Of a stretch of 64,000 nt of DNA, positions 23,997 to 38,499 are shown one piece after another. The notes below the pieces were generated by a model. The model made no database searches and had not been told where the DNA came from. It was given only the letters and a program-made list of their open reading frames with translations. The DNA lies in contig CALWJJ010000005.1 of assembly GCA_944380985.1 (NCBI GenBank), positions 21,648-85,647 of the forward strand. The letters run 5' to 3'. The translations under genes and the position numbers were made by a program. Position 1 is the stretch's first letter. Each line of letters opens with the position of its first letter. Source of the stretch: an uncultured Agathobaculum sp. (GTDB lineage Bacteria; Bacillota; Clostridia; Oscillospirales; Butyricicoccaceae).

Positions 23997-24267
23997 TTAA
24001 TATCAGGTCTGCTTCGACAGGCCGGCCATATTTGCTATGGTGCACCAAATGTATTTATTGATAAATGCGTTCCGGCCCATGTGAAATTGATTTGCCGAGG
24101 ACCCGATCCGGGCAAGCAGTGCGGCATCTATCCGGATGGATAGCTGCTCAATGCAATAAGGTTTCGGAACAAAAGTTCCCCATTTTTTCGCACCGCCTTT
24201 TCAAAAGGGTGCAGCTATTAGTACGACCTGTTTATATGCCTAAATTAAAATAAAACTTCAAAAGGCT

Positions 24268-25758
24268 TTATAGCTCCTGTCTAGCCTGCCGGATCTCATC
24301 GAGCAGACGCTGCTGCGTATCGTCAAACAGAAGCTGCTTATTGTGTGCGTAATATGCATCGCTTCCGAAATTCTGAATAAACCATGAGATAAAGTAGTTC
24401 GCGGTCAGCTCGGTGGCAAACAGCACAAGCTCCTGGCTGTTCGGGATGGCCTCGTCGAGAAAGGCAAATGCGTTTGCAAGCTGCCGGTCGGTCTGCTCGG
24501 CTGCATCCGCACGTGCCTGCACGTCGTCCTGAAACAGCGCCTTGAGCCGGTCAAACGCCTGTCCGCGCGGCACTTTCTCAAGCGAGATCGTCTGCTGGAA
24601 GCCAGCGAGACGCTCAGCCTCGCGCGCGGCGACGAACAGCGCGTCACGATCGGCCGCGCCCGCAGCCCGGTGGTGTGCAAGCGCAGCCTGCTTTTCGTCA
24701 AGCAGCGTGCCAAGCGTCTTTTCACCCTCGCGCACGCAGATTAGATCCTGGTGCAGCGCGCCGGTCAGGCCGTCCAGCCGGTAGGTCTCGCGCGCGCTGT
24801 CCGTCAGCCGCGCGATGAGCAGGCCGATGACGCCTAGCTTTTCGTCAAAGGCGGCGTCTGCAAGTTCGCGGGCGCGCAGCTTTTCCCAGCTGCCGTTCAG
24901 AATCTCTTCAATGCGGTAGACGCGCTTGTATTTTTCATAGAGCTGCAAATAGTTTGCAAAATCGCTTGCCACACGCGGCAGCTGTAAATATTGACCGACC
25001 ACCTGCCGGTCGACCGGAAGGCCGAGCGATTCGTACACCTGCATCAGCTCGGACAGATCCTCCCAGCCGCGCGCGGTGACAAACTGCATGCCGTCCGCTG
25101 CCGCCTCGACGCGGTAGAAGTGGTCGCGCCGAATCTCAAGATACGACAGGATGGCGCCGTGTACGCCGCGCCGGTAGGCGTACTCTTTCCAGACCGTAAA
25201 GTCCTCCTCCACATCAATACGCTTGACGCGGTCGAGCGTGACTACATCAAACTCGCGCACGGACTTGTTGTATTCAGGCGGGTTGCCTGCGGCAACGACC
25301 ACCCAGCCCGCAGGCAGCTGCTGGTTGCCAAAGGTTTTGCACTGCAAAAACTGCAACATCATGGGGGAAAGGGTTTCTGAGATGCAGTTGATCTCATCGA
25401 GGAACAAGATGCCCTCGCGAACGCCTGTGCGCGCGATTTCGCGGTAGACCGAGGCGATGATCTCGCTCATCGTGTAGGCTGTGACCGCGTATTCCTGTCC
25501 GTCAAAGGTCTCGTGTTCGATATAGGGCAGGCCGAGCGCCGACTGGCGCGTGTGGTGGGTGAGCGTGTAGGATACAAGTCCTACGCCGGTCTCGTCCGCT
25601 ATCTGCTGCATGATCTGGGTTTTGCCGATACCCGGCGGGCCCATAAGCAGGATGGGGCGCTGCCGGATGGGCGGGATGCGATATACGCCGAACGCATCGC
25701 GCGCAAAATAGGCGCGCAGTGCGTTTTTGATCTCGTTTTTGGCTCGCTTGATGTTCAT
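24268..25758 (-). CDS. AAA+ ATPase (MoxR/dynein-related AAA_5 type) with helical C-terminal extension
   Basis: Walker A GPPGIGKT, Walker B ILFLDEIN, VAAGNP sensor, TARGWED; start MNIKRAK at 25758 after GGAGG. Confidence 0.85.
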   Translation of the reverse strand: MNIKRAKNEIKNALRAYFARDAFGVYRIPPIRQRPILLMGPPGIGKTQIMQQIADETGVGLVSYTLTHHTRQSALGLPYIEHETFDGQEYAVTAYTMSEIIASVYREIARTGVREGILFLDEINCISETLSPMMLQFLQCKTFGNQQLPAGWVVVAAGNPPEYNKSVREFDVVTLDRVKRIDVEEDFTVWKEYAYRRGVHGAILSYLEIRRDHFYRVEAAADGMQFVTARGWEDLSELMQVYESLGLPVDRQVVGQYLQLPRVASDFANYLQLYEKYKRVYRIEEILNGSWEKLRARELADAAFDEKLGVIGLLIARLTDSARETYRLDGLTGALHQDLICVREGEKTLGTLLDEKQAALAHHRAAGAADRDALFVAAREAERLAGFQQTISLEKVPRGQAFDRLKALFQDDVQARADAAEQTDRQLANAFAFLDEAIPNSQELVLFATELTANYFISWFIQNFGSDAYYAHNKQLLFDDTQQRLLDEIRQARQEL

Positions 25759-25759
25759 G

Positions 25760-27058
25760 TTATCCTCCTTGCGCGGCAAAAATTTCGTTTTCGCGCAGCA
25801 CTGCGCGGATGCCCCATGGGGGTACGTTTTCCGGATGCGCATCGCCCTCGAGCATGACGAACGCCGCATCGTATTTGGGTGGTTTTTGGGGGTAGATGCC
25901 CAGTCCGTCGGTAAAATAGATCATGCCGCGCAGGTGGTGGAACGCGCCTTCGGCAACCAGCTTGTCCACATGCTCAAACACCGGACGGAAGTCGGTTGCC
26001 GACTGGCCGATCAGCTCAAACCTGTCCATGTATGCGCGCAGGTCACGCGCACTTGTGATGCGCTTGTCCGAGCGAAGCTGATCGTCGCATTGCAGGATGC
26101 GCAGGTTGATGTGCCGGAAAAAGCTTTCGCTGTCCGTAAGAAGTGAGTAGGTATAGGATAAAAACTGTCGAACCAGTTCGCCCGAGGTCGACATCGAGGT
26201 ATCGATCGCAATGACGAAATCCTCAATTTTGCGCACTTCACGGGTTTCGAGCGGTTCGATCAGCGGTAGGTTGCCATAGTGCCGCAGGCCATAGGCGTAG
26301 TAGCCGTAGTCAAATGCGTCGGCGTCGATTGCGACCTCCTCACGCAACGCGGCAAAGCGGCGCAGAAAGGCGCGGTAATCGGTTGTTGGCTGCGCGGCAA
26401 CGGCGAGCTGTTCGCGTACAGCCTCGCCCCCTGTCGACTGGTTGGAGAACACAGTCTCCATGGCGGTCTGGGTCTGCGAGGCAGTGCGCTGCCACTGGCG
26501 GTCCTGCTCGTCTTCATTTGAGGCGGGCCAAAGCGAGTGGTCGTCTATATAGAACACGCGGGCAAGCGTAGCGCAATCATAGGCGCTGAGCCGCTCGCGC
26601 CGAAACTGACGGTAAATCGCCTCGGCAGTCAGCACTGGCATAGACTGGCGCAGCCCCCGGTAGGCGTTTTGGCGGCGGATAGAGGGTTTGTCCGCCTGTA
26701 CGCAGCGGTAGTCGAGCGCGTCGAGCATGCTTTCGACCGCAATATCGCATGCAAGATCCCACAGCGGCAGGTCGCGTCCGCGCGTTTTGGCGGGGTGGCG
26801 CAGCAGGCAGTGGAACACGGTATGCAGATAGGCGCGGTTGACCTGCGCGCGCGCCTGCTCGAGCTGCTGCGCCAGCCACGCGCCGCTGAAATACAGGTGT
26901 CTGGCGTCGGTCGCAAGCGTTGCCGTGTCATAGTCTTGATCGGTGATGGTGAGCGCGGAAAGCGCCAGATCGAGAAAAGGCATGTGCATATACAGCTCGG
27001 TGCGGGCCGCGGTCAGGATCTCCCGGCCGATCGTCTGCCAACGCTCGCTTTGGGGCAC
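25760..27058 (-). CDS. DUF2201-type protein: N-terminal metallopeptidase-like domain plus C-terminal vWA domain
   Basis: HTVFHCLLRH motif, MIDAS DTSMS, GQSATDFRPVF, YFTDG; GTG start at 27058 after GGAGG (alternative start 27103). Confidence 0.75.
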   Translation of the reverse strand: MPQSERWQTIGREILTAARTELYMHMPFLDLALSALTITDQDYDTATLATDARHLYFSGAWLAQQLEQARAQVNRAYLHTVFHCLLRHPAKTRGRDLPLWDLACDIAVESMLDALDYRCVQADKPSIRRQNAYRGLRQSMPVLTAEAIYRQFRRERLSAYDCATLARVFYIDDHSLWPASNEDEQDRQWQRTASQTQTAMETVFSNQSTGGEAVREQLAVAAQPTTDYRAFLRRFAALREEVAIDADAFDYGYYAYGLRHYGNLPLIEPLETREVRKIEDFVIAIDTSMSTSGELVRQFLSYTYSLLTDSESFFRHINLRILQCDDQLRSDKRITSARDLRAYMDRFELIGQSATDFRPVFEHVDKLVAEGAFHHLRGMIYFTDGLGIYPQKPPKYDAAFVMLEGDAHPENVPPWGIRAVLRENEIFAAQGG

Positions 27059-27099
27059 GACGCCACCTCCTCTGGTTTTGGTCAAATGATTTTTATGCA

Positions 27100-28074
27100 T
27101 CACAGGTTGAACGACTTAGTCCGCCCGCTGGGCGCGTTTTGTCCGATGGCGGCCAGCAGCACGGACAGCGCGGCGGTCTGCTCGTTTTCACGGGCGGTAT
27201 CGCACGCGGCCGATATATCGCGCGCCGACAGCACGCCGCGCGACAGAAGAAAGCTGAGCGCCGTGCTCTCACCCGCCGCAGCGCATGCGCGCGCCAACTC
27301 GCCGCCGTGTGCGCGCAGACAGTCGAGATACATATCGCGCGCGGCGTCCGACAGTCCGAAGGGCGCGGCCAGCCGCCGTGCTGCAATGCGGGCTGCGTCG
27401 ATAAAATCGTGCCGCGCGATGAGGCCGTCGAGTGCGCGGTCGTACTGATGGGGCTGGAACACACCGGCGGCAAAACATTCGCGGTAACCGTAGCCCGCGC
27501 CGTGGATGCGCCGCTGGAAGATATGCGCGGCTGTCACGGTCTCAAGCTCCTCGCTGTATGCGGGGAAAAGCAGCCGCGCCGCCGCGCCGTTATGGTAGAA
27601 TACAACATCCAGCTCGCCCGCGTGTTCGTTTAGAATTTTACGCAGACAGGTTGGCCCGGCGGGATCGGCATACAGGCGGACGGCGTGCAGCGCGCGGCAG
27701 TTCATCAGTGTTTCGCCGCCGAAGTCGCGCACCGAGGCGGTTATCGTCAGGCTTTCCAGACGGCGGCAGTTGTAAAACGCATATGCGCCCACGCTTTGCA
27801 GATGCGCCGGCAGTGTGACCGCGCGTATGGCGCCCGCGTCGTGCACAGGGTCGGCGGCGCCGCAGGTGACGCGCACATGGAACGCATCGCCCGGCAGGAC
27901 GGCAGGCGGGCGCGCGCTCATCGAGTAGGCGCCAAGCGATACAACCGGCGCGCCGGCGATCTCATCCGGCAGACAAACGCTCTCGTCGCTCGTTGCGCAG
28001 CGCAGGATGGAAACACCGGCGGGTGTTTGCAGGCAGGTCAGCAGCAGCTCGTTTTCCCCTTCGATAATGTGCAT
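27100..28074 (-). CDS. Leucine-rich repeat (BspA/LRR_5-type) cytoplasmic protein
   Basis: LPDEIAGAPVVSLGAY, TLPAHLQSVGAYAFYNCRRLESL repeats; ATG at 28074 after AAGGAGG; no signal peptide. Confidence 0.75.
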   Translation of the reverse strand: MHIIEGENELLLTCLQTPAGVSILRCATSDESVCLPDEIAGAPVVSLGAYSMSARPPAVLPGDAFHVRVTCGAADPVHDAGAIRAVTLPAHLQSVGAYAFYNCRRLESLTITASVRDFGGETLMNCRALHAVRLYADPAGPTCLRKILNEHAGELDVVFYHNGAAARLLFPAYSEELETVTAAHIFQRRIHGAGYGYRECFAAGVFQPHQYDRALDGLIARHDFIDAARIAARRLAAPFGLSDAARDMYLDCLRAHGGELARACAAAGESTALSFLLSRGVLSARDISAACDTARENEQTAALSVLLAAIGQNAPSGRTKSFNL

Positions 28075-28114
28075 GGCGCGCCTCCTTTCTCGGCTGTTTC
28101 TCTGTTCGGCTTCG

Positions 28115-28143
28115 ATTATAGCACAGCCGCTGCGGCGCGGCAA
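28115..28143 (-). promoter_or_regulatory. Sigma-A promoter of LRR-vWA-AAA operon
   Basis: Minus strand TTGCCG-17 bp-TATAAT. Confidence 0.55.
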
Positions 28144-28248
28144 CAAAAGTGGCGCGTTTTTGTCCGTTTTTGCGCCGGTGGATAGAAATGTTGCGAGAGC
28201 GATAAGAAAGTATCAGCGTAATAAATTATAAAAATTTACAAAACAGTC

Positions 28249-28277
28249 TTGACAAAGCGGGAGGATGGGAATATACT
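28249..28277 (+). promoter_or_regulatory. Sigma-A promoter of the T-box leader
   Basis: TTGACA-17 bp-TATACT. Confidence 0.75.
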
Positions 28278-28289
28278 GTGCCCATAGCG

Positions 28290-28572
28290 CAAAACCGATG
28301 ACGAAGACGAGTAGCGGGGAAGCCAAACCTCCAAGAGAGCCGCGGGCGGTGGGATCGCGGCAGGCAAGGACCCGGTGAATGGACTTTATCAGGGCAAGGC
28401 GAAAGGGATTGCTCCCAAGTAGCTGCGACGGGGACTCCGCCCGTTATCAGGGGAAGCACGCATTGTCGGATGCGTGGAAACGAGCGGACGCAGATGCGTC
28501 AACTTGGGTGGCACCGCAAGAGCTGGTTGATAAGCTCCTGTCCCATGGCATACATGGGATGGGGGCTTTTTT
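28290..28572 (+). ncRNA. T-box riboswitch, tryptophan specifier (UGG)
   Basis: AGTAG, AGAGAGC and GGTGGGA stem-I motifs; GAA-TGG-A specifier (TGG 28380-28382); T-box AACTTGGGTGGCACCGC (28501-28517); terminator hairpin plus T-run ending about 28572. Confidence 0.92.
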
Positions 28573-28731
28573 GATTGCGTGCAGCCCCTTTGGCAAATTC
28601 TTTCCGACAGACCGAGGTTTTTCCAAATGCCGCAAAAAGTCGGTATACCTGGATTTTTATCAAACATACAGCGTGGCGGCGCGGAAAAACGCAGGCAAAC
28701 CATTTATGCATAGAAAGAGAGGAGACCCACC

Positions 28732-30099
28732 ATGGCGAAGATCCCGTACAGACTGTATTTAACTGAAGACCAGATGCCGCACCAGTGGTACAACTTGCGC
28801 GCCGATATGAGGGAGCAGCCCGATCCGCTGATTCACCCGGGTACGCACGAGCCGCTGCCGACCGAGGCGCTTTATCCGATCTTCTGTGAAAAGCTCGCAC
28901 AGCAGGAAACGGACAGCACGACCCGCTATATTGACATTCCCGAGCCGGTGCTCGATATGTATAAGCTATACCGCCCGTCGCCGCTGTGCCGTGCGTACAA
29001 TCTGGAAAAGGCGCTCGATACCCCGGCCAAGATCTACTACAAGTTTGAGGGCAACAACACCTCAGGCTCGCACAAGCTTAACTCGGCCATCGCGCAGGCG
29101 TACTACGCCAAGGAGCAGGGCCTGAAGGGCCTGACGACCGAAACCGGCGCGGGTCAGTGGGGCACGGCGCTCTCTGAGGCGTGCGCGTTTTTCGGGCTGG
29201 ATCTCAAGGTGTTCATGGTCAAGGTGTCCTATGAGCAGAAGCCTTACCGCAAGGCGGTCATGCAGACCTTTGGCGCAGACGTGACGCCCTCCCCCTCAAA
29301 CACCACCGAGGCGGGGCGCGCCATCCTTGCGCACGATCCGAACACCGGAGGCTCGCTTGGCTGCGCGATCTCCGAGGCGATCGAGGTGGCCACAACGCAC
29401 GAGGGCTATCGCTATGTGCTCGGCTCGGTACTCAACCAGGTGCTGTTGCACCAGTCGATCGTCGGCCTGGAGAGCAAGCAGGCCATGGAGATGCTGGACG
29501 AATATCCGGACATCGTCATCGGCTGCGCGGGCGGCGGCTCCAACCTCGGCGGCCTGATCGCGCCCTTTATGCAGGATAAGCTGACCGGAAAGGCCAATCC
29601 GCGCATTATCGCGGTCGAGCCGGCCTCCTGCCCGTCGTTCACCCGCGGCAAGTATGCTTATGATTTCTGTGATACCGGCCATGTCACCCCGCTGGCACGC
29701 ATGTATACGCTGGGCAACGGCTTTATGCCTGCGCCCAACCACGCGGGCGGTCTGCGCTATCACGGTATGAGCCCGATTCTCTCCAAGCTGTATCACGACG
29801 GCTATATGGAGGCAGTCTCGGCCAAGCAGACCGATGTGTTTGAAGCGGCAGTACAGTTTGCCAAAGTAGAGACTATCCTGCCTGCACCCGAGTCCTCGCA
29901 CGCAATTCGCTGTGCGATCGACGAGGCGCTCAAGTGCAAGCAGACCGGCGAGGCCAAGACCATTCTGTTCGGCCTGACCGGCACAGGCTACTTCGATATG
30001 TCTGCCTATGAGTCCTACCACAATGGCAAGATGGTCAACCGCGTGCCGACCGATGAGGAGCTGCAGGTCGGTTTTGACACGCTGCCGCGGCTCGACTGA
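28732..30099 (+). CDS. trpB2: TrpB2 (stand-alone tryptophan synthase beta-like PLP enzyme)
   Basis: P.QWYN, YRPSPLCRA, SGSHKLN (PLP Lys), TETGAGQWG, GGGSN, HAGGLRYHG, PAPESSHA; 455 aa; no trpA nearby. Confidence 0.92.
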   Translation: MAKIPYRLYLTEDQMPHQWYNLRADMREQPDPLIHPGTHEPLPTEALYPIFCEKLAQQETDSTTRYIDIPEPVLDMYKLYRPSPLCRAYNLEKALDTPAKIYYKFEGNNTSGSHKLNSAIAQAYYAKEQGLKGLTTETGAGQWGTALSEACAFFGLDLKVFMVKVSYEQKPYRKAVMQTFGADVTPSPSNTTEAGRAILAHDPNTGGSLGCAISEAIEVATTHEGYRYVLGSVLNQVLLHQSIVGLESKQAMEMLDEYPDIVIGCAGGGSNLGGLIAPFMQDKLTGKANPRIIAVEPASCPSFTRGKYAYDFCDTGHVTPLARMYTLGNGFMPAPNHAGGLRYHGMSPILSKLYHDGYMEAVSAKQTDVFEAAVQFAKVETILPAPESSHAIRCAIDEALKCKQTGEAKTILFGLTGTGYFDMSAYESYHNGKMVNRVPTDEELQVGFDTLPRLD

Positions 30100-30129
30100 G
30101 CAGAAACCAACGGCTGTATTATAAGGAGA

Positions 30130-30168
30130 AAGACCCGACAGCGCTTGCAGGCGCTGCCGGGTCTTTTT
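30130..30168. terminator. Terminator between trpB2 and spoIID
   Basis: IR aagacccg.cagcgc...gcgctg.cgggtcttttt. Confidence 0.75.
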
Positions 30169-30180
30169 GTTTTGCCGCTT

Positions 30181-31152
30181 TTACAGGGTGACAAGCGCGG
30201 TGTTTAGATAGTAATGCGCGAGTATTTCGGCGTAGGATGCACCCTGCTCGGCCATATATCGCGCGCCGTACTGCGATAGTCCGACCCCGTGTCCATAGCC
30301 GATGGTGTGGAAGGTGATACTGTCCTCGGTGGTGGTCAAGGTAAAGTTGGTTGATTGCAGGCCGAACAGTTCGCGTACTGCGGCGCCCTCAACGGTCACT
30401 CCACCCAGCTCGACTGTGATTACACCGCCCGCCTCGGATCGAACGGACGCCTTAAACCAGGTGTTCGGCGCGCCGGAAAGGTCGGCAGAGGGGAAAGCGT
30501 CCGCAACCGCGGTGCGGAAATCGTCCGCAGAGAGGGTCACCGCGTCCTCATAGCCGTCGTAAGCCGAGCCGCCCGGGCTGACCGCGCTTTGCAGATAAGG
30601 GATGTCCTCTCCCCACACATCTCTGGCGGCCTCAGTGCGTGGTCCGCTGACACAGTGAAACACCGCAGCAATGGGCTGGCCGTCATAGGTCAGTATCTCA
30701 CCCGCCGTATCCTGCACCGCCTGCTGTACGCGCGACAGATCGCTACCTGCCGCGGTTTCTACTGCAATATCACGCCAGGCTGCGCAGTGGCGGTAGTCGT
30801 CGCACAGGTCGGCTTCCGGGTGGGCCTCAGGTCGCCCGCGAAATAGCTTGTAAACCGCGTAGGTGCGCGCCGCAACCGCCTGCGCGCGCAGCGCCTCCTC
30901 GGGGAAATCATTTGGTATCTCGGCTGCAACAACGCCGGCCACATAGTCCTCGAGCGGTAGTTCGGTCGGCGTGCCGTCCAGCATGACCGTAACGGCAGAA
31001 TAATCGCCCGCCATCCCGTCCGCTTGCACCGCCTGCACGGCGGCGGGCGGCGAGGCGCTCTCCTCCGGCTCGCCTAGCGACCAGAACACGGGCAGCAGAT
31101 ACAGCATCAGCACCAGCGCGCCGCCCGTCAGCAGTAGTTTGCGCATGTCCAC
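30181..31152 (-). CDS. spoIID: Stage II sporulation protein D (lytic transglycosylase)
   Basis: N-terminal TM; YVAGVVAAE, EALRAQAVAARTY, GYGHGVGLSQYGA, EILAHYY. Confidence 0.92.
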   Translation of the reverse strand: MDMRKLLLTGGALVLMLYLLPVFWSLGEPEESASPPAAVQAVQADGMAGDYSAVTVMLDGTPTELPLEDYVAGVVAAEIPNDFPEEALRAQAVAARTYAVYKLFRGRPEAHPEADLCDDYRHCAAWRDIAVETAAGSDLSRVQQAVQDTAGEILTYDGQPIAAVFHCVSGPRTEAARDVWGEDIPYLQSAVSPGGSAYDGYEDAVTLSADDFRTAVADAFPSADLSGAPNTWFKASVRSEAGGVITVELGGVTVEGAAVRELFGLQSTNFTLTTTEDSITFHTIGYGHGVGLSQYGARYMAEQGASYAEILAHYYLNTALVTL

Positions 31153-31169
31153 AGCCTCCTTCTTCCGTC

Positions 31170-31198
31170 AGTCTATGCAGGTTCAAATATTGATAGAA
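31170..31198 (-). promoter_or_regulatory. Putative sigma-E (mother-cell) promoter of spoIID
   Basis: Minus strand TTCTATC-14 bp-CATAGACT, matching the sigma-E -10 consensus cATAcanT and its spacing. Confidence 0.6.
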
Positions 31199-31217
31199 CA
31201 CCAAATCTAGGATAGTA

Positions 31218-31246
31218 TTGACAATCATTCCAATATGTAGTATTCT
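31218..31246 (+). promoter_or_regulatory. Sigma-A promoter of the small two-gene operon
   Basis: TTGACA-17 bp-TATTCT. Confidence 0.7.
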
Positions 31247-31261
31247 ATAAAACAGAAATAA

Positions 31262-31275
31262 CGAACAAATGTTCG
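31262..31275. promoter_or_regulatory. LexA (SOS/Cheo) box
   Basis: CGAACAAATGTTCG is a perfect match to the Firmicute consensus CGAAC-N4-GTTCG; it lies between the -10 element and the RBS. Confidence 0.8.
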
Positions 31276-31296
31276 ATAAAAATAAGGAGGGGCACC

Positions 31297-31536
31297 ATGG
31301 TGCTGCGTGAAATGGCACAGGAATACCGAAGGAACACAGCGCTGCTCGAACTGCGGATGAAGCAGCTGCAGGTCGCGCAGCGCCGTGCCGAGCAAAAGGA
31401 GGTCAAATATCGACTCAAGCGACGGATCGGCCTGCTGCGCGTGCTGATCAACGAGAGCCGCAAGACCGTTTTTGTGCTGGAACATTATTATGACAGAAAA
31501 GGAGGGCAAGCACATGATGACAAAAGAGCTGGCTGA
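31297..31536 (+). CDS. Small basic helical hypothetical protein (79 aa)
   Basis: AAGGAGG RBS 31284-31290; Arg/Lys-rich heptad-like sequence; overlaps the next gene. Confidence 0.6.
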   Translation: MVLREMAQEYRRNTALLELRMKQLQVAQRRAEQKEVKYRLKRRIGLLRVLINESRKTVFVLEHYYDRKGGQAHDDKRAG

Positions 31537-31819
31537 CCGGGCGGCATACGAAGAGTATCTTGCCGGCCTTGCTGCGGATGACAGCGCGTTTCGCGCGGCG
31601 TTTCGCGCAGCGTTCTTTCAGGCACTGCACGAGCAGATGACCGCGCGGCAGTATGAGATCCTGCTCATGCGGGAGGTGGAAGGGCTGTCCGGCAAGGAGA
31701 TTGCGTACAAGCTGGGCATCAGCCAGTCGGCTGTGTCGCGGCACCTGACGCGTGGCAAAAAACGGCTGCGCACGCTGTTGGCCTACAATCTTGAGCTGAG
31801 AAGCCGCGACTTCTCCTGA
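31514..31819 (+). CDS. Stand-alone sigma-70 region-4-like HTH protein (101 aa)
   Basis: AAGGAGG RBS; MTARQYEILLMREVEGLSGKEIAYKLGISQSAVSRHLTRGKKRLR is a typical sigma r4.2 HTH; no region 2. Confidence 0.8.
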   Translation: MMTKELADRAAYEEYLAGLAADDSAFRAAFRAAFFQALHEQMTARQYEILLMREVEGLSGKEIAYKLGISQSAVSRHLTRGKKRLRTLLAYNLELRSRDFS

Positions 31820-31977
31820 AAACCGGATAAGGAAAAACAGCGCCCGGCGGGAAGGGAGTTCCTGTCGGGCGCGTATTGTTTTTGGTAAGATGGCTTACTT
31901 GATATGGCATATGGCGCCATGTGCGAGCAAAATGTCGTAGGTTGCGGCAATCGACCGGCAAAAACGGGTGTTCATGC

Positions 31978-32006
31978 TTGAAAAGTGCGGCATACAGTGT
32001 TAAACT
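31978..32006 (+). promoter_or_regulatory. Sigma-A promoter of purB
   Basis: TTGAAA-17 bp-TAAACT with TG extension. Confidence 0.55.
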
Positions 32007-32076
32007 AAAATTGGGTTAAAATCTGTTATTAACGTAATCTGCACCGCAATCGGGCAGATAGGAAAGGACGACTGAC

Positions 32077-33507
32077 ATGAACGACGTGTACGAAAGCCCG
32101 CTTTCCTCGCGCTATGCCTCCAAGGAGATGCTGTATATTTTCTCTTCGGATATGAAGTTTTCGACCTGGCGCCGCTTGTGGGTATCGCTCGCCAAGGCCG
32201 AGATGGCACTTGGCCTGCCCATCACACAGGCACAGATCGATGAGATGCAGGCGCATATTGACGACATCGACTATGATACCGCCCGCGCGCGGGAGAAAGA
32301 AGTCCGCCACGATGTAATGGCGCATGTCTACACCTATGGCAAGGCCGCGCCGGGGGCGGCGGGCATCATCCATCTCGGCGCGACAAGCGCCTATGTGGGC
32401 GATAATACCGACATCATTCAGATTCGGGAGGGGCTGCGGCTTGTTGGCAAAAAGCTCGCGGCCGTGCTGGCGCAGCTTGCCGATTTTGCGCAAGCGCACA
32501 AAGCACAGCCGACACTCGGCTTTACCCACTTCCAGCCGGCGCAGCTGACGACAGTAGGCAAGCGCGCGACGCTCTGGATGAACGAGCTGCTCATGGACCT
32601 GAGTGAGGTCGAATACCGCATGAAGACCTTACGTATGCTGGGAAGTAAGGGAACGACTGGCACGCAGGCATCCTTTATGGAGCTGTTTGACGGCGACGAG
32701 GACAAGGTAAAGGCGCTGGAAAAGCGCATTGCGGATGATTTCGGTTTTGCAGGCGTGGTGCCGGTATCCGGCCAGACCTATTCACGCAAGATCGACGCGC
32801 AGACGCTTGCAACGCTGTCTGGAGTTGCACAGTCAGCGTCCAAGTTTGCGACCGACCTGCGCCTGCTTCAACATTTAAAGGAGGTAGAGGAGCCGTTTGA
32901 AAAAAACCAGATCGGCTCTTCCGCCATGCCGTACAAGCGCAACCCGATGAGAAGCGAGCGTATCTGCGCGCTCGCGCGCTATGTCATCACGGACAGCTTA
33001 AACCCGGCGTTTACATCCGCAACGCAGTGGTTTGAGCGCACGCTGGACGATTCGGCCAACAAGCGCATCTCGGTGCCCGAGGCTTTCCTCGCGGTCGACG
33101 CTATCCTTAATATTATGATTAACGTGGTCTCGGGCCTTGTGGTTTATCCCAAGGTGATTGAGGCGCATGTGAGGAATGAACTGCCCTTTATGGCAACCGA
33201 GAATATTATGATGGACGCGGTCAAGCGCGGCGGCAACCGACAGGAGCTGCACGAGCGCATCCGCGAGCACTCGATGGCCGCAGGACGGCGCGTTAAGGAA
33301 GAGGGGTTGGACAACGACCTGATCGACCGCATTGCGGCCGATCCGATGTTCGGCATGACGCGCGAGCAGATTGTCGCGCACCTCGATCCCAAGGCATATA
33401 TCGGCCGCTGCCCCTCGCAGGTAGACGAATTTGTCGCCGAATGCGTCCGCCCGGCTATCGCGCCCTATCTCGACGGCGAGGCGATCGAGGTGGAAATTAA
33501 CCTTTAA
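32077..33507 (+). CDS. purB: Adenylosuccinate lyase
   Basis: YESPLSSRY, RHDVMAH, IHLGATS, GFTHFQPAQ, GSSAMPYKRNP fumarate-lyase signature. Confidence 0.97.
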   Translation: MNDVYESPLSSRYASKEMLYIFSSDMKFSTWRRLWVSLAKAEMALGLPITQAQIDEMQAHIDDIDYDTARAREKEVRHDVMAHVYTYGKAAPGAAGIIHLGATSAYVGDNTDIIQIREGLRLVGKKLAAVLAQLADFAQAHKAQPTLGFTHFQPAQLTTVGKRATLWMNELLMDLSEVEYRMKTLRMLGSKGTTGTQASFMELFDGDEDKVKALEKRIADDFGFAGVVPVSGQTYSRKIDAQTLATLSGVAQSASKFATDLRLLQHLKEVEEPFEKNQIGSSAMPYKRNPMRSERICALARYVITDSLNPAFTSATQWFERTLDDSANKRISVPEAFLAVDAILNIMINVVSGLVVYPKVIEAHVRNELPFMATENIMMDAVKRGGNRQELHERIREHSMAAGRRVKEEGLDNDLIDRIAADPMFGMTREQIVAHLDPKAYIGRCPSQVDEFVAECVRPAIAPYLDGEAIEVEINL

Positions 33508-33623
33508 GTGAAGGGCGCGGGAGCAAATGTCCGTTTGCCAGGTTGCTCGAACGAGAAAAAACAACAGGGGCGCCGGTGTACCGCGCCCCTTTGCCAGTGA
33601 TTTCTTTTGATGGGAGGTTTATT

Positions 33624-34415
33624 ATGCAGGTCGGCATTTCAACCGCGTGCTTTTACCCGCAGCCGATTGAGGAAATTCTGCCGGTATTGGCGGCGCTGGG
33701 CACGCACGCGATCGAGCTGTTTGTCAATACAGAGAGCGAGTTTCAGCCGCGCTTTTATGAGCAGATCGGCGCGCAGGCGAAAAGCCTCGGGCTGGAGATT
33801 GTTTCGGTGCACCCTTATGCCTCGCCAATGGAGGGTATGATGCTGTTTTCCGACTACAAGCGCCGCACGGAGGACGGTATGCTGCAATACCAGCGGTATT
33901 TTGAGTGCGCGGCCGCGCTTGGCGCGCGCTGCCTGATCTTTCACGGTGAGCGCGACATGGGGCAGTCCGACAGTCCTGCACAGTGGGAGCGAAAGTGCGA
34001 AAGCTACCGCCGCCTGTGCCGGCTGGCGGCGGCCTGCGGGGTGACGCTTGCGCAAGAGAACGTGGCCTGGTGTCGCTCGCACGACCCGGGATTTCTGGCG
34101 GCATTGCGCCGCGATGTGCCCGAGCTGTGCTACACGCTTGACATCAAGCAGGCGCACCGCGCGGGCAAGGACTGGCGGTCGTTTTTCGACGTGATGGGCG
34201 AGCGGATCGTCAATGTCCATATCAACGATTTTTCGTCCGGGCAAAGCTGCCTGATGCCAGGCAAGGGCGATATGGACTACGCCTCTCTCTTTTCCGCGCT
34301 GCGCGGCGTGGGATACGACGGGCATGCACTGATTGAGGTATACCGCTCGAATTTTGGCGACCCCGAGGAGCTGGCGCGCACGCTGCGCATGCTCTCCCGC
34401 ATGACGCCGGCATAA
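33624..34415 (+). CDS. Sugar phosphate isomerase/epimerase-like TIM-barrel protein
   Basis: GISTAC, SVHP, QENV, TLDIKQ, HINDF...MPGKG, IEVY metal-binding pattern; GGGAGG RBS. Confidence 0.8.
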   Translation: MQVGISTACFYPQPIEEILPVLAALGTHAIELFVNTESEFQPRFYEQIGAQAKSLGLEIVSVHPYASPMEGMMLFSDYKRRTEDGMLQYQRYFECAAALGARCLIFHGERDMGQSDSPAQWERKCESYRRLCRLAAACGVTLAQENVAWCRSHDPGFLAALRRDVPELCYTLDIKQAHRAGKDWRSFFDVMGERIVNVHINDFSSGQSCLMPGKGDMDYASLFSALRGVGYDGHALIEVYRSNFGDPEELARTLRMLSRMTPA

Positions 34416-34459
34416 GTCTGCGGGCAAACCCCATATAATGGGCATTTTGTGCGGATGCG

Positions 34460-34489
34460 TTGACTTTGCCGAACAAGCAGTGGTATAAT
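34460..34489 (+). promoter_or_regulatory. Sigma-A promoter of nrdR
   Basis: TTGACT-18 bp-TATAAT with TG extension. Confidence 0.55.
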
Positions 34490-34532
34490 AAAAATATACA
34501 TAATTAATAATTTTTAATGAGAGGTGAAGCGC

Positions 34533-34988
34533 ATGAAATGTCCGTTTTGCGGTTGTGACGACAGCAAGGTCGTCGATTCGCGCCCGACTGACGAGGGCAC
34601 GAGTATCCGCCGCCGGCGGGAATGCCTCAAGTGCCTCAAACGCTTTACCACCTATGAGACGGTCGAGCGCATGCCGCTGATGCTGGTCAAGCGGGATGGC
34701 ACCCGCCAGGCTTACGACCGTGAAAAGCTGCTGCGCGGCCTGATGAAGGCGTGCGAAAAGCGCCCGGTCTCGCTCATGCAACTCGAGCAGATTGTCGATG
34801 CGGTTGAGCAGAAGGTGTTCGGCACGCTTGAGAGCGAGGTGTCGAGCAAGGTGATCGGCGAGCTCGTCATGGAGGGCCTGCGCAAGGTGGATGAGGTTGC
34901 CTATGTCCGCTTTGCATCGGTCTACCGGCAGTTTAAGGATATTAACACTTTTATGGAGGAGCTCAACACGCTGATCAAGGATAAGTGA
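34533..34988 (+). CDS. nrdR: Transcriptional repressor NrdR
   Basis: MKCPFC...KVVDSR...[16 protein letters not shown] zinc ribbon; ATP cone; [13 protein letters not shown]. Confidence 0.97.
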
Positions 34989-35191
34989 ATCCGCGCGACT
35001 TCCCGCGGGGGAACCAGCCTGTTTGCGCCCCCATGTAAAACCGATAGCGAAAATGTTAAGATCCAGGGCGCCAAATGTGCTTTGGATCTTTTTTTCAAAT
35101 ATTGCGGGATTTTTGAATGGATTTCCCTCGCTGGATCGTGTATGGGGTGAAAGGGTAAAACACCACCACACAACAGAGGGAGGAACAAATT

Positions 35192-35560
35192 ATGAAAAAG
35201 GTACAGACTGGTATTGTGGCCGCGGCGCTGCTGGCGGCTATCGGTGTGACGAGTGCGTTTGCCGCCGGCCCCGGCTGGGGATGGCGGGCAGGCCGAGACG
35301 CTGTCCGGCCCGCGTGCACCGGCGCATTCTGCCGCTATGCGGATGCGGATGGCGATGGTGTGTGCGATGTCTGCGGCGCTGTCGGCGTGTCCGGATGGGG
35401 CAGATACGATGAGAGTGTTGGCGGCAACGGCGTTCGCCTTGGCTGCGGCACAGCGGGGCGGTATTACACTGATGAAAACGGCGACGGCGTGTGCGACCGC
35501 TATGCAGACGGCGCATATCTCGGTTACGGCCGCGGCGCATGCGGAGTATACGGAAGATGA
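35192..35560 (+). CDS. Secreted Gly/Cys-rich small protein with two Dx[DN]GDGxCD motifs
   Basis: GGAGG RBS; signal peptide MKKVQTGIVAAALLAAIGVTSAFA; DADGDGVCD and DENGDGVCD; 7 Cys. Confidence 0.75.
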   Translation: MKKVQTGIVAAALLAAIGVTSAFAAGPGWGWRAGRDAVRPACTGAFCRYADADGDGVCDVCGAVGVSGWGRYDESVGGNGVRLGCGTAGRYYTDENGDGVCDRYADGAYLGYGRGACGVYGR

Positions 35561-35584
35561 TCTGATAGCAGGTGGGGGTTCGGA

Positions 35585-36067
35585 ATGCGCAATGAACAAG
35601 AGGTGAACAGGGCGATTGAGCAGTATGCCGATACTGTCCGCCGTCTGTGCATGCTCTATTTGAAAAATCATGCCGATACTGAGGATGTTTTTCAAACCGT
35701 GTTTATGAAGTATCTGCTGCATACCGAGCCTTTTGCCGATGATGAGCACGAAAAGGCATGGCTCATCCGCGTTACGATCAACGCATGTAAGGATGTGCTC
35801 AAAAGCTTTTTCCGCCGTCGCACGGTCTCGCTCGACGAGGTGCTCGAGCAGCCCGCCTTGATCGCGCCAGACCATCGGGAAGTGCTCGAGGCTGTTCTTG
35901 CGCTGCCGCAGAAATACCGGGATGTGGTATACCTACATTATTATGAGGGATATGCCGCGCCTGCGATTGGCCGCATTCTGGGCAAGAATGCCAACACGGT
36001 GTATACGCTGCTCGGCCGCGCAAGGCAGCAGCTTCGCGCAAAGCTGGGAGGTGAGGGCGATGGATGA
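35585..36067 (+). CDS. ECF-type RNA polymerase sigma factor
   Basis: DTEDVFQTVF, HEKAWLIRVTINACKD (region 2); LPQKYRDVVYLHYYEGY...VYTLLGRARQQL (region 4); 160 aa. Confidence 0.93.
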   Translation: MRNEQEVNRAIEQYADTVRRLCMLYLKNHADTEDVFQTVFMKYLLHTEPFADDEHEKAWLIRVTINACKDVLKSFFRRRTVSLDEVLEQPALIAPDHREVLEAVLALPQKYRDVVYLHYYEGYAAPAIGRILGKNANTVYTLLGRARQQLRAKLGGEGDG

Positions 36068-36812
36068 ACGGATCAGGAAAGCGTTTGATCAGATCCGTGC
36101 GGACGAGGCGCTAAAAGAGCGAACACGCGCGAGTCTCGCCCGCAGGCAGGCCGGACGGCGGCGCGCTCTGCCTGGGCGCCTGCGCACGATTACCGTGCTC
36201 GCCTGCCTAGCGCTTATGCTGCTGACCGGCTGGGGCGGCTATCAGGTGTATTTTACGCCTACGTCGATCATCAGCATTGATGTCAACCCATCGGTTGAGC
36301 TAGGCGTCAACCGCTTTGGCAGGGTCGTTGCGGTCAATGGCTATAACCGTGATGGAGAGGCGCTCGCTGCCGCGCTCGACGTGCGGTTTATGGACTATGC
36401 CGAGGCGCTCAGCCGCATTCTGGACAGCGAGGCGTTTGCGGCATATGAGGCGGACGGTGCGATCGTCCTGATCGCCGTGCTGGATGCAGACGAGGCGCGC
36501 GGCGGCGAAATGCTTGCACGGGTCGAGTCCTGTACCGCAGGGCGGCAAAATACGCACTGTCTTGCAGACGATATGGACGCTGCTCAGCACGCGCATGAGG
36601 CCGGTCTGTCTTATGGCAAATACCGTGCGTATCTGGCGCTCAGGGAGCTCGATCCGTCGGTCACGCCGGATGAGGTGCGCGATATGTCCATGCGCGCTAT
36701 CCGCGACCAGATTGCCGCGCTGTCGGACGGGAATGTAACCGTACAGACTGGACATACGGGCGGCGGACAGGGAAAGGGATACCGGCATCAGGCGCGGCAA
36801 GGCGCGGGATGA
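36060..36812 (+). CDS. Single-pass anti-sigma factor with RsgI-like extracytoplasmic domain
   Basis: Short cytoplasmic helix, TM, then SIISIDVNPSVELGVNRFGRVVAVNGYNRDG (RsgI-type); overlaps the sigma gene stop. Confidence 0.75.
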   Translation: MDERIRKAFDQIRADEALKERTRASLARRQAGRRRALPGRLRTITVLACLALMLLTGWGGYQVYFTPTSIISIDVNPSVELGVNRFGRVVAVNGYNRDGEALAAALDVRFMDYAEALSRILDSEAFAAYEADGAIVLIAVLDADEARGGEMLARVESCTAGRQNTHCLADDMDAAQHAHEAGLSYGKYRAYLALRELDPSVTPDEVRDMSMRAIRDQIAALSDGNVTVQTGHTGGGQGKGYRHQARQGAG

Positions 36813-36967
36813 CAGCCTACGGCGCGGCAAGAAGCAAACGAACGAAAAACCGCCCGGAGCGACCCGTGGCAGCACATGTGTATCATGCTGCCGCAGGATG
36901 GCTCCGGGCGGTTCGTTATTGTATTGCGGAAGGGCGCGTTTCCTCCTGCGCGAAAAGGCGCGGCAGG

Positions 36968-38251
36968 TCAGGAGTTTTGCAGATCGTTCGACCAGCCGAA
37001 TTTGTCAAATGCGAAGAACAGCAGGCTCATCAGCATGGCGACGATCGCGGCGAGCGTCATGCCCGATAAGGCGACGTTGCCGAGCGATAGCGTCACGCCT
37101 GACAGGCCGACGACGAACACCACCGAGGTGAGTACCATGTTGCGGTTTTTGCCGTAATCGACCTTGTTGTCTACCAGGATGCGTAGGCCTGAGGTGCCGA
37201 TCATGCCGTATAGTAGGAAGGAGATGCCGCCGATGACCGGGCCGGGGATGGTCTGGATGAGCGCGGCGAGCGGGCCGACAAACGAGCAGATGATGCTCAG
37301 CACGGCCGCGCCGCCGATTACGCGCACCGAATATACGCGGGTGATCGCCATAACGCCGATATTCTCACCATAGGTTGTGGTCGGTACCGAGCCGATCAGG
37401 CCGGATAACATAGTCGAGAAGTTGTCCGCGAACAGTGTACGGTGTAGGCCGGGATCGCGCAGCAAATCGCGGCCGACTACTTTGCTCGTCACCAGTTGAT
37501 GGCCGATGTGCTCGTTTGCGATTACAAGGATGACCGGCAGAATGATCAGGATGGCCTCGGGGTCAAATTTTGGCAGCTGGAAATTCGGAATGGAGATGAT
37601 GTCCGCGCTGAACGCCGCCATAATGTCGGCCGGGGTGATAACGCCGGTGAGCACGGCGCATACATAGCCGCAAAGGATCGCGATCAGGATCGGGATGACC
37701 GACAGGAACCCCCGGAACAGCACGCTGCCGAGGACGGCTACGCCAAGCGTAACGCAGAAGGTGATGACGTTTGGCGCGAGCACCTGAGGTGCGTCTGCCG
37801 TTGGCACGATCAGCCCGGTCGAGGCTGCCGAGCTTGCAAGCTCAAGGCCAATCAGCGCAACAACCGGACCCATAGCCGCAGGCGGCAGCACCACGTCGAT
37901 CCATCTGGTGCCGCACTTATAAATAATTGCGGCCAGAATACAGCCGATCAAGCCGACGACCACAAAGCCGCCAAGCGCGTATTCATAGCCCCATTGGTCG
38001 ATAACCAGGGTCGCAGGTGCGATGAACGCGAACGACGAGCCTAAGTATGCCGGCGCCCTGCCCTTGGCGATTAGGATGAACAGCAACGTGCCGATACCGT
38101 TCATAAACAGCACGATTGCCGGACTGATGCCGAACATAAACGGCACCAGCACGGACGCGCCGAACATGGCGAACATGTGCTGGATGGAAAGCGGTACCAG
38201 CAGCCGGGGTGGCACCTTGTCTTCTACCTGAATGATTTTTCTGGTCTGCAT
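36968..38251 (-). CDS. uraA: Uracil permease (NCS2/UraA-PyrP)
   Basis: LSIQHMFAMFGASVLVP, PAYLGSSFAF, EHIGH, PTTTYGENIGV signature. Confidence 0.94.
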   Translation of the reverse strand: MQTRKIIQVEDKVPPRLLVPLSIQHMFAMFGASVLVPFMFGISPAIVLFMNGIGTLLFILIAKGRAPAYLGSSFAFIAPATLVIDQWGYEYALGGFVVVGLIGCILAAIIYKCGTRWIDVVLPPAAMGPVVALIGLELASSAASTGLIVPTADAPQVLAPNVITFCVTLGVAVLGSVLFRGFLSVIPILIAILCGYVCAVLTGVITPADIMAAFSADIISIPNFQLPKFDPEAILIILPVILVIANEHIGHQLVTSKVVGRDLLRDPGLHRTLFADNFSTMLSGLIGSVPTTTYGENIGVMAITRVYSVRVIGGAAVLSIICSFVGPLAALIQTIPGPVIGGISFLLYGMIGTSGLRILVDNKVDYGKNRNMVLTSVVFVVGLSGVTLSLGNVALSGMTLAAIVAMLMSLLFFAFDKFGWSNDLQNS

Positions 38252-38313
38252 CGTTTCTTCTGTCCCCTCTCAAAAGATGTGCGGAAACGGGCGGTGCCCG
38301 CCCCCGCTTGATT

Positions 38314-38368
38314 CAAAACCCACGGCAGCGCGTGGGTTTTTTGCGTATCTGCCGCACGGGAACAGATT
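38314..38368 (-). promoter_or_regulatory. PyrR-type attenuator leader (binding loop, antiterminator and terminator)
   Basis: Minus strand TCTGTTCCCGTGCGGCAGA hairpin with one deviation from UCCNGNGAGGY; its CGGCAG can pair with CTGCCG in the terminator AAAACCCACG-CGCTGC-CGTGGGTTTT; promoter TTGAAC-17-TATAAT at 38431-38403. Confidence 0.65.
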
Positions 38369-38499
38369 CCCATATAAGGAAATACGCCCGCGCGCCGGCC
38401 ATATTATACATGATTTTGCAGCCTGGTTCAAGCGTCTGTCCGCCGTTTTCTGTATTGACGGCGGGCAGATAGAATGCCTTCTGCGCGACAGGCAGATGG

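Follow-up and report, generated by a model that had tools for sequence, protein, structure and literature searches.

What is the function of a two-gene transcription unit that sits between spoIID and purB, carries a LexA-type palindrome close to its predicted transcription start, and encodes, as its second product, a sigma-70 region 4 standing alone? The unit belongs to the 64-kb stretch of DNA that was analysed as a whole, here called the window, which corresponds to positions 21648-85647 of contig C5 in the genome of an uncultured Agathobaculum species (G000; 1.84 Mb, 56% G+C). Its two genes are designated open reading frames ORF1 and ORF2. Comparison of the locus with its relatives points, with confidence somewhat above even, to a transcription regulator made of two proteins, of mobile-element ancestry, which is freed from LexA repression during the SOS response. 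An earlier note, made on the letters of the window, had proposed a damage-controlled regulator pair beyond the usual list of SOS genes, and every comparative test run lends support to that proposal. In what follows, g1 is the genus of G000, and g11, g18, g19 and g21 are other genera of its family; L-numbers designate loci and P-numbers proteins.

The first point to be settled is the nature of the palindrome. The element CGAACAAATGTTCG is the sole perfect CGAAC-N4-GTTCG in the window; genome-wide (1.84 Mb), four such 14-mers were found versus about two expected from the base composition. Its reading as the Firmicute LexA operator, made in the earlier note, agrees with the use of the same motif elsewhere in this genome: the single lexA gene is preceded by CGAACAAATATTCG and CAAACAAATGTTTG, and recA is preceded by CGAACAAATTTTCGATAAAA, the box itself being CGAACAAATTTTCG. 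Taken with its flanks, the operon box (CGAACAAATGTTCGATAAAA) is the consensus of the lexA and recA boxes, including the AAAT spacer and the ATAAAA flank. The upstream regions of 12 orthologous loci of the genus, G000 included, were compared over 200 aligned nucleotides (alignment A3). The hexamer TTGACA, the GTATT-T of the -10 element and the CGAAC and GTTCG half-sites were all invariant in the 12 loci, the mean column identity being 69%, and the alignment amounts to a clear phylogenetic footprint, in which a sigma-A promoter is followed by a LexA site that lies over the transcript start. Because of its recA/lexA-like spacer and flank, its position near the start and its invariance across the genus, the box is more than a chance occurrence, and very probably a real LexA operator. 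What was looked for in a member of the LexA regulon was found here, namely the motif itself, the same motif at the genome's own lexA and recA, overlap with the transcript start, and conservation at orthologues. SOS control of the operon is well supported by these comparisons and is considered highly likely.

Conservation of the operator at orthologues is full in g1 and partial in g21, g11 and one g19 locus, three other genera in which the pair is preceded by degenerate LexA-type boxes, RAAC-N4-GTTY, in agreement with the AAAC-N4-GTTT form present at the lexA of those genera. The g18 pair (L020, L021, L029 and L030) has instead two ACAC-N5-GTGT palindromes, the first lying between -35 and -10 and the second past the start, and in L020 a divergent gene of the XRE/Phage_CI_repr type lies alongside, from which a different repressor appears to act on the same operon in g18. 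At most g19 loci, no recognisable box was seen upstream of the pair. As the box types differ among genera, the input seems to have been rewired between lineages, LexA being the input in g1.

Further good boxes in G000 stand ahead of a Y-family polymerase gene (IMS domains), an MgsA/RarA gene, mraZ, a prophage and a phage-like gene cluster. At C4:62551-62564, about 130 nucleotides (nt) upstream of mraZ, which heads the division and cell-wall cluster, there is a perfect extended LexA-type palindrome, TTCGAACAGACGTTCGAA, that may connect SOS with cell division.

The second point is what the two proteins are. ORF2 matched Sigma70_r4_2 (E 1.3e-14), Sigma70_r4 (E 1.4e-9) and also GerE-type helix-turn-helix (HTH) models, while TIGR02937, a model of extracytoplasmic function (ECF) sigma factors, aligned ORF2 residues 20-88 to its positions 97-164 out of 165. 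No Sigma70_r2 match was obtained in the scan of Pfam and NCBIfam, and there are just 35 residues ahead of region 4, which upholds the stand-alone region 4 claimed from the sequence. Public records describe ORF2 orthologs as "sigma-70 family RNA polymerase sigma factor", a label that fails as a family assignment because ORF2 is devoid of region 2. The best solved relative is the sigma-4 domain of SigF, and hhalign gave 90% probability for the alignment with Sig7 of Tn916, over the sigma-4 part only (the Sig7 and Sig8 sequences used for comparison were those of pCF10). Thirty-four residues of ORF2 are invariant, and in the predicted recognition helix (residues 70-77, SQSAVSRH) this holds for seven of the eight positions (alignment A2). 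The domain and hhalign matches point to a DNA-binding role of ORF2.

ORF1 gave no family match in Pfam, NCBIfam or PHROGs, and a profile search of the PDB returned only coiled-coil noise (E > 3). Its confident AlphaFold2 model (predicted local distance difference test, pLDDT, 85) is a pair of long helices running antiparallel, residues 3-30 and 34-62, and Foldseek retrieved with it generic hairpins only, all with E > 0.6 and no sigma-2 domain among them. Nine residues of ORF1 are invariant. The ratio of nonsynonymous to synonymous substitution rates (dN/dS) within the genus was 0.05-0.19 in pairwise comparisons over both ORFs (0.05-0.19 for ORF1 and 0.08-0.19 for ORF2), with dS near or above 1 and with rows L012 and L016, which are out of register, left out. 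Both genes are under strong purifying selection. Concerning their expression, the Shine-Dalgarno sequence of ORF2 is formed by the same bases that encode the conserved ORF1 tail HYYDRGG, an arrangement repeated in distant relatives, and therefore the translation of both genes appears to be coupled.

The features of the locus are collected in Table 1. The promoter, the box just downstream of it, the pair of overlapping genes each with its own AAGGAGG, and the hairpin behind them had all been described in the earlier note, and each of them was recovered at its place, the hairpin as part of an intrinsic terminator. Together they make a compact transcription unit between its two neighbours.

Table 1. 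Features of the ORF1-ORF2 transcription unit and its neighbours (positions in the window).
Feature	Position	Strand	Remarks
spoIID	30181-31152	minus	Upstream neighbour of the operon
Sigma-A-type promoter TTGACA-17-TATTCT	31218-31246	plus	10/12 matches, best promoter of the region; TTGACA 31218-31223, 17-nt spacer, TATTCT 31241-31246
Predicted LexA (Cheo-type) operator CGAACAAATGTTCG	31262-31275	no strand	Box 16 nt past the -10 hexamer; about +9 to +22 relative to the predicted transcription start
Ribosome-binding site of ORF1, AAGGAGG	31284-31290	plus	6 nt ahead of the ATG; read from the sequence
ORF1	31297-31536	plus	79 amino acids, isoelectric point 10.6, helical hairpin; family without description
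Ribosome-binding site of ORF2, AAGGAGG	31499-31505	plus	Inside the ORF1 codons for the conserved tail
ORF2	31514-31819	plus	101 amino acids, linker and sigma-70 region 4 (HTH); other frame, 23-nt overlap with ORF1
Intrinsic terminator	31840-31882	plus	14-bp stem and T run; hairpin 31840-31872, -33.5 kcal/mol, z -5.1
purB	32077-33507		Downstream neighbour of the operon

Two features of the surroundings were considered as clues and rejected. The adjacency of spoIID is a matter of synteny only, as the distance is up to 1.5 kb in g1, and spoIID lies farther away in G093 (g18) and in L047 (g21-like). The block conserved upstream of the -35 element within the genus was weighed as an activator site and, by eye, more likely forms part of the divergent spoIID promoter.

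The third point is how far the two genes travel together. ORF1 is present in 37 of the 121 family genomes; within the G000 genus, 11 of the 12 other species carry it. The earlier note had suggested looking for the box and both ORFs in related genomes; as to the latter, ORF2 comes after ORF1 in 28 of 30 family loci. Beyond the family, an overlapping sigma-4 gene follows the ORF1-like gene in L045/L046 (read in L045), L051/L052, L053 and L083, and such a partner was seen at every outside locus long enough to show one, L054-L056 ending too early for this. Homologs of ORF1 form 117 clusters, and 217 representative clusters were reached in a wider library by exhaustive profile search, mostly of 65-80 amino acids; many database entries of 130-173 amino acids correspond to the ORF1 frame running by chance through ORF2 in G+C-rich DNA. 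The search of 50,697 phage records with ORF1 by tblastn gave no match, and a distant ORF1 relative matched a single record filed as phage, MT836668 (L083).

Several observations accompany this survey. Record MT836668 ('Bacteriophage sp.', unverified, 9.2 kb), inspected by eye, looks like bacterial chromosome, with apparent genes for a two-component system, an ABC transporter and a PEP carboxykinase, and is probably misfiled. In g19 and g11 (L022-L028, L031 and L032), as well as in P0137, P0140 and P0143, ORF1 is extended by a tail in which the motif RGRPRK resembles an AT-hook; in all of these the ORF1 frame stays open for at least 60 codons over the ORF2 start, and gene callers therefore report proteins of 130-173 amino acids. 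A small zinc-ribbon gene (CxxC...CxxC) stands directly before the ORF1-like gene, and is coupled to it, in L054-L056 and L083 (positions 34-258 in L083), whereas in P0172 both are fused; zinc ribbon, hairpin and sigma-4 would thus make up a three-part module in other lineages. The metagenome proteins P0114 and P0118 are in-frame ORF1-ORF2 fusions of 125 and 83 amino acids, each seen on one short contig and arising from internal deletions of a G050-type operon, and are either natural variants or assembly artefacts.

The setting of the relatives bears on the origin of the pair. In L045 the gene order is XRE, HTH_17, ORF1-like, sigma-4, a membrane protein and a protein that, by eye, is Spo0A_C-like; the contexts of some other ORF1 relatives are plain chromosomal settings. 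G000 itself holds a prophage in contig C11, at about 24000-39400, with lysis, tail, terminase, HNH, DnaB, XRE and serine recombinase genes. This prophage shows LexA-type boxes at 36187 and 37892, and an ORF1 homolog (hhalign 94%) at 31000-31260 of the minus strand, immediately ahead of the genes for HNH and terminase, with no sigma-4 partner there. A prophage origin, one of the options considered in the earlier note, or a mobile-element origin gains in this way from ORF1 relatives adjoining XRE and HTH_17 genes and from the copy in the genome's own prophage. The module appears widespread in Clostridia, and the same neighbours and the prophage copy support its mobile-element ancestry.

With these elements, the following mode of action is proposed. 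LexA would repress the bicistronic operon, both proteins being made only once DNA damage triggers LexA self-cleavage. ORF1 and ORF2, translationally coupled, would probably act as one complex, in which ORF2 would bind DNA by its HTH of the sigma-region-4 type, while the basic two-helix hairpin of ORF1 would serve as its partner, either in oligomerisation or in contacting RNA polymerase. The module would derive from a Clostridia family some copies of which lie beside XRE/HTH_17 switch genes or in prophages, in the place of a positive regulator, so the pair would presumably activate certain target promoters rather than repress them. In the Agathobaculum lineage, it would have become fixed on the chromosome beside spoIID, with the host SOS repressor as its present input.

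Five observations weigh against this proposal. No target site for the pair was found. LexA control is not universal, considering the other palindromes of g18 and the boxless majority of g19 loci. The structure model of ORF2 is of low confidence (pLDDT 57), too poor for a fold search. One species, of the G053 type (L018, L047-L049), keeps ORF1 with two LexA-type boxes after losing ORF2, a MatE gene beginning 46 nt past the solo ORF1, so ORF1 may have a function of its own. Finally, genomes G099, G117 and G064 hold, without the pair, an intact and ordered 8-gene cluster of phage type that is a candidate target and is considered next.

This cluster occupies about 8 kb of G000 (C1:30935-39228) and contains terS, terL and the genes of a small membrane protein, portal, scaffold and major head protein, followed by those of a 128-amino-acid protein, a 606-amino-acid virion structural protein and a 316-amino-acid protein. 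It is flanked by ordinary metabolic and housekeeping genes, and no integrase, lysis or tail genes were found in it, save a weak tail-fibre-like match in the 606-amino-acid protein. A LexA box abuts the -35 element of the sigma-A promoter at C1:30840 that drives the cluster. Synteny holds in the four other genomes that were checked in full. The identity of the capsid protein is 90-94% in all other 12 genus genomes; six g18 genomes and three out of four from g21 follow with 72-75%, and g11 and most g19 genomes with 64-68%. This stepwise drop argues for a vertically inherited, selected set of genes and not a recent prophage; judging by these identities, the cluster descends vertically through at least five genera of the family, and it is a candidate domesticated element similar to gene transfer agents.

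The promoter of the cluster has LexA-type boxes in g1, g21 and g18. In g19 (L068, L069 and L070) there is no LexA box, and a perfect DnaA-box consensus, TTATCCACA, lies just upstream of the promoter; the input may there have changed from LexA to DnaA. Concerning terL, none of the codons ATG, GTG and TTG occurs ahead of the Walker A motif in its frame (C1:31100-31260), and translation could plausibly begin only at an ATA that overlaps the stop codon of terS (GCATAA), a situation for which re-initiation, a rare start codon or a lesion could account. The conserved AAATTGCAAG / ATACCGCA upstream of the cluster was considered as a site for the pair and rejected, because by eye it reads as the -35/-10 of the divergent HAD-hydrolase gene.

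It is tempting to regard the pair as a dedicated, SOS-triggered regulator of this cluster, acting as activator, antiterminator or unorthodox two-subunit sigma. Pair and cluster occur together in 32 genomes; three have only the cluster, one has a firm ORF1 match without the cluster, and four have only weak, distant ORF1 matches. In the G053-type species that lost ORF2 (L077), a frameshift divides the capsid gene into two frames, which could be decay or an assembly error. The overlap in distribution is suggestive, and it amounts to one shared origin and not to repeated co-gain, while the three genomes with an intact cluster and no pair rule out that the pair is indispensable for it. For both reasons the regulatory link is held to be unlikely. 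If true, it would mean a system of gut Clostridia resembling gene transfer agents or PBSX, with a two-protein controller of the GafYZ kind wired to DNA damage.

Another explanation, rather unlikely as well, is that the pair is a split sigma factor, in which ORF2 would supply region 4 (binding the -35 element and the beta flap) and ORF1 the core-binding and -10-recognising functions of region 2, so as to redirect RNA polymerase after damage to private promoters. The earlier note had listed this option, and the part of it that stands is the precedent. In Tn916, Orf7 (sigma-4) and Orf8 are reported to form the split sigma Sig7-8, which binds RNA polymerase and drives the main promoter of the element (bioRxiv 10.64898/2026.10.01.756105, October 2026), and the layout is alike, a sigma-4 protein and a partner of about 76 amino acids encoded by overlapping genes; SigO-RsoA, cited in the same paper, is a second precedent. 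In addition, ORF1 and ORF2 total 180 amino acids, about the size of an ECF sigma factor, and ORF2 aligns to the linker and sigma-4 part of ECF models. The part that does not stand concerns ORF1, which fails the tests of region-2 sequence and fold. A region-4 subunit is thus at hand in ORF2, but no region-2-like partner (HTH_16/RsoA-like): ORF1 showed no region-2, HTH_16 or RsoA signal in Pfam and NCBIfam, its model is a plain two-helix hairpin for which Foldseek gave no sigma-2 domain whatsoever, and hhalign returned 0.3% probability versus Sig8, itself an HTH_16 protein (E 5.8e-27), a result on which ORF1 as a Sig8/RsoA homolog was rejected. Furthermore, the gene order is reversed with respect to sig7-sig8, ORF1 persists without ORF2 in one species, and, with an operon promoter of the sigma-A type, nothing points to self-activation as at Psig7.

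Equally doubtful is that the operon encodes an SOS effector or checkpoint and not a promoter-specific activator. In one version ORF1 would be the active product, for instance as an inhibitor of RNA polymerase, cell division, sporulation or RecA/LexA; in another, free ORF2 would be a decoy, its sigma-4 competing with region 4 of sigma-A for either the beta flap or an anti-sigma factor. The solitary ORF1 with LexA-type boxes left after ORF2 loss agrees with the former, as does the solo ORF1 homolog in the G000 prophage. ORF1 is also small, very basic and hairpin-shaped, as several RNA-polymerase-binding factors are, and no YneA-type SOS division inhibitor was noticed, by eye only, beside lexA. 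However, ORF1 is coupled to a sigma-4 gene in nearly all family loci and in four lineages beyond the family, which argues for a joint function, the recognition helix of ORF2 is conserved as it would be in a sequence-specific DNA binder, and nothing speaks positively for any one target.

Least probable is that the box does not function as a LexA site, the operon being constitutive or otherwise controlled and the palindrome kept for another reason: this fits with the perfect 14-mers expected by chance in the genome and with the different palindromes and neighbouring XRE gene of the g18 operon, but not with a spacer and flank shared with the recA and lexA operators, an overlap with the transcript start, an invariance of the box across 12 species while adjacent bases vary, and related boxes in three more genera.

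The two-protein SOS regulator favoured here is of interest on several accounts. Beyond model organisms, SOS regulons are mostly lists of repair genes, and a conserved, damage-induced regulator would give the response a second tier in common butyrate-producing gut bacteria. ORF1 stands for a family without description so far that counts at least 217 sequence clusters, mostly coupled, at the loci examined, to a free-standing sigma-4; this breadth together with the usual coupling suggests a device that recurs in Clostridia and their mobile elements. As the split sigma of Tn916 has just been recognised, it is timely and feasible to ask about other pairs of a sigma-4 protein with a small partner. 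The pair itself is of moderate interest, to which the size of the ORF1 family and a possible connection with the putatively domesticated phage cluster add; the vertically inherited cluster with its LexA or DnaA boxes may be the more interesting thread.

It remains to compare the pair with known systems. In Clostridium perfringens, UV light induces the alternative sigma factor UviA, which belongs to group 5 and is complete, region 2 included. By description, it is alike in being a damage-induced regulator of sigma type in a Clostridium, and unlike in being a full sigma. The term UviA appears in PMC4885068. GafYZ and GafA activate the gene transfer agents of alphaproteobacteria (PMC9632790, PMC9638019), and are similar by analogy only, as small, sometimes two-protein, sigma-like regulators of a domesticated phage structural cluster; they belong to another phylum, and in the present case the link to a phage-like cluster consists of shared distribution and LexA boxes alone.

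The Ltr superfamily comprises activators of phage late genes, and LtrA of its family II carries Sigma70_r4 (PMC3753634). The resemblance is in the small size of the proteins, the sigma-4-like C-terminal DNA-binding domain and the role of positive regulators that Ltr proteins have (PMC3753634), to which the ORF1 homolog of the C11 prophage adds the position of an ltr gene, before HNH and terminase genes. On the other hand, Ltr is a single polypeptide encoded beside terS. Two separate proteins were found here in all lineages seen, save the fusions P0114 and P0118, and the operon lies between spoIID and purB, not before terS or a late operon, the C11 ORF1 paralog being the only one in such a place. 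Models of ArpU, RinA and DUF1492 were not among the matches listed for ORF1 or ORF2.

The closest comparisons are with split sigma factors. SigO-RsoA of Bacillus subtilis also unites a small partner and a region-4 protein (Tn916 paper, PMC8103513), and is set apart, by the description of RsoA, in that RsoA has a region-2-like sequence, a signal that ORF1 is without. As to Tn916 Sig7-8, Sig8 belongs to the Pfam HTH_16/RsoA-like proteins whereas ORF1 is a hairpin without a family, the order of the genes is reversed, ORF2 has no counterpart of the N-terminal part of about 80 amino acids of Sig7, and the promoter is of sigma-A type under LexA, not self-activated, with a pair that is chromosomal and vertically inherited. 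In common with Sig7-8 there are two small, overlapping, co-transcribed genes, one of them with sigma region 4 as its sole recognisable part and with hhalign similarity over that part, and a mobile-element setting with an XRE-type neighbour, in which the module takes the place of the positive regulator. So, it can be said that the pair, while apparently not a member of the split-sigma family by any feature testable here, may work like a split sigma.

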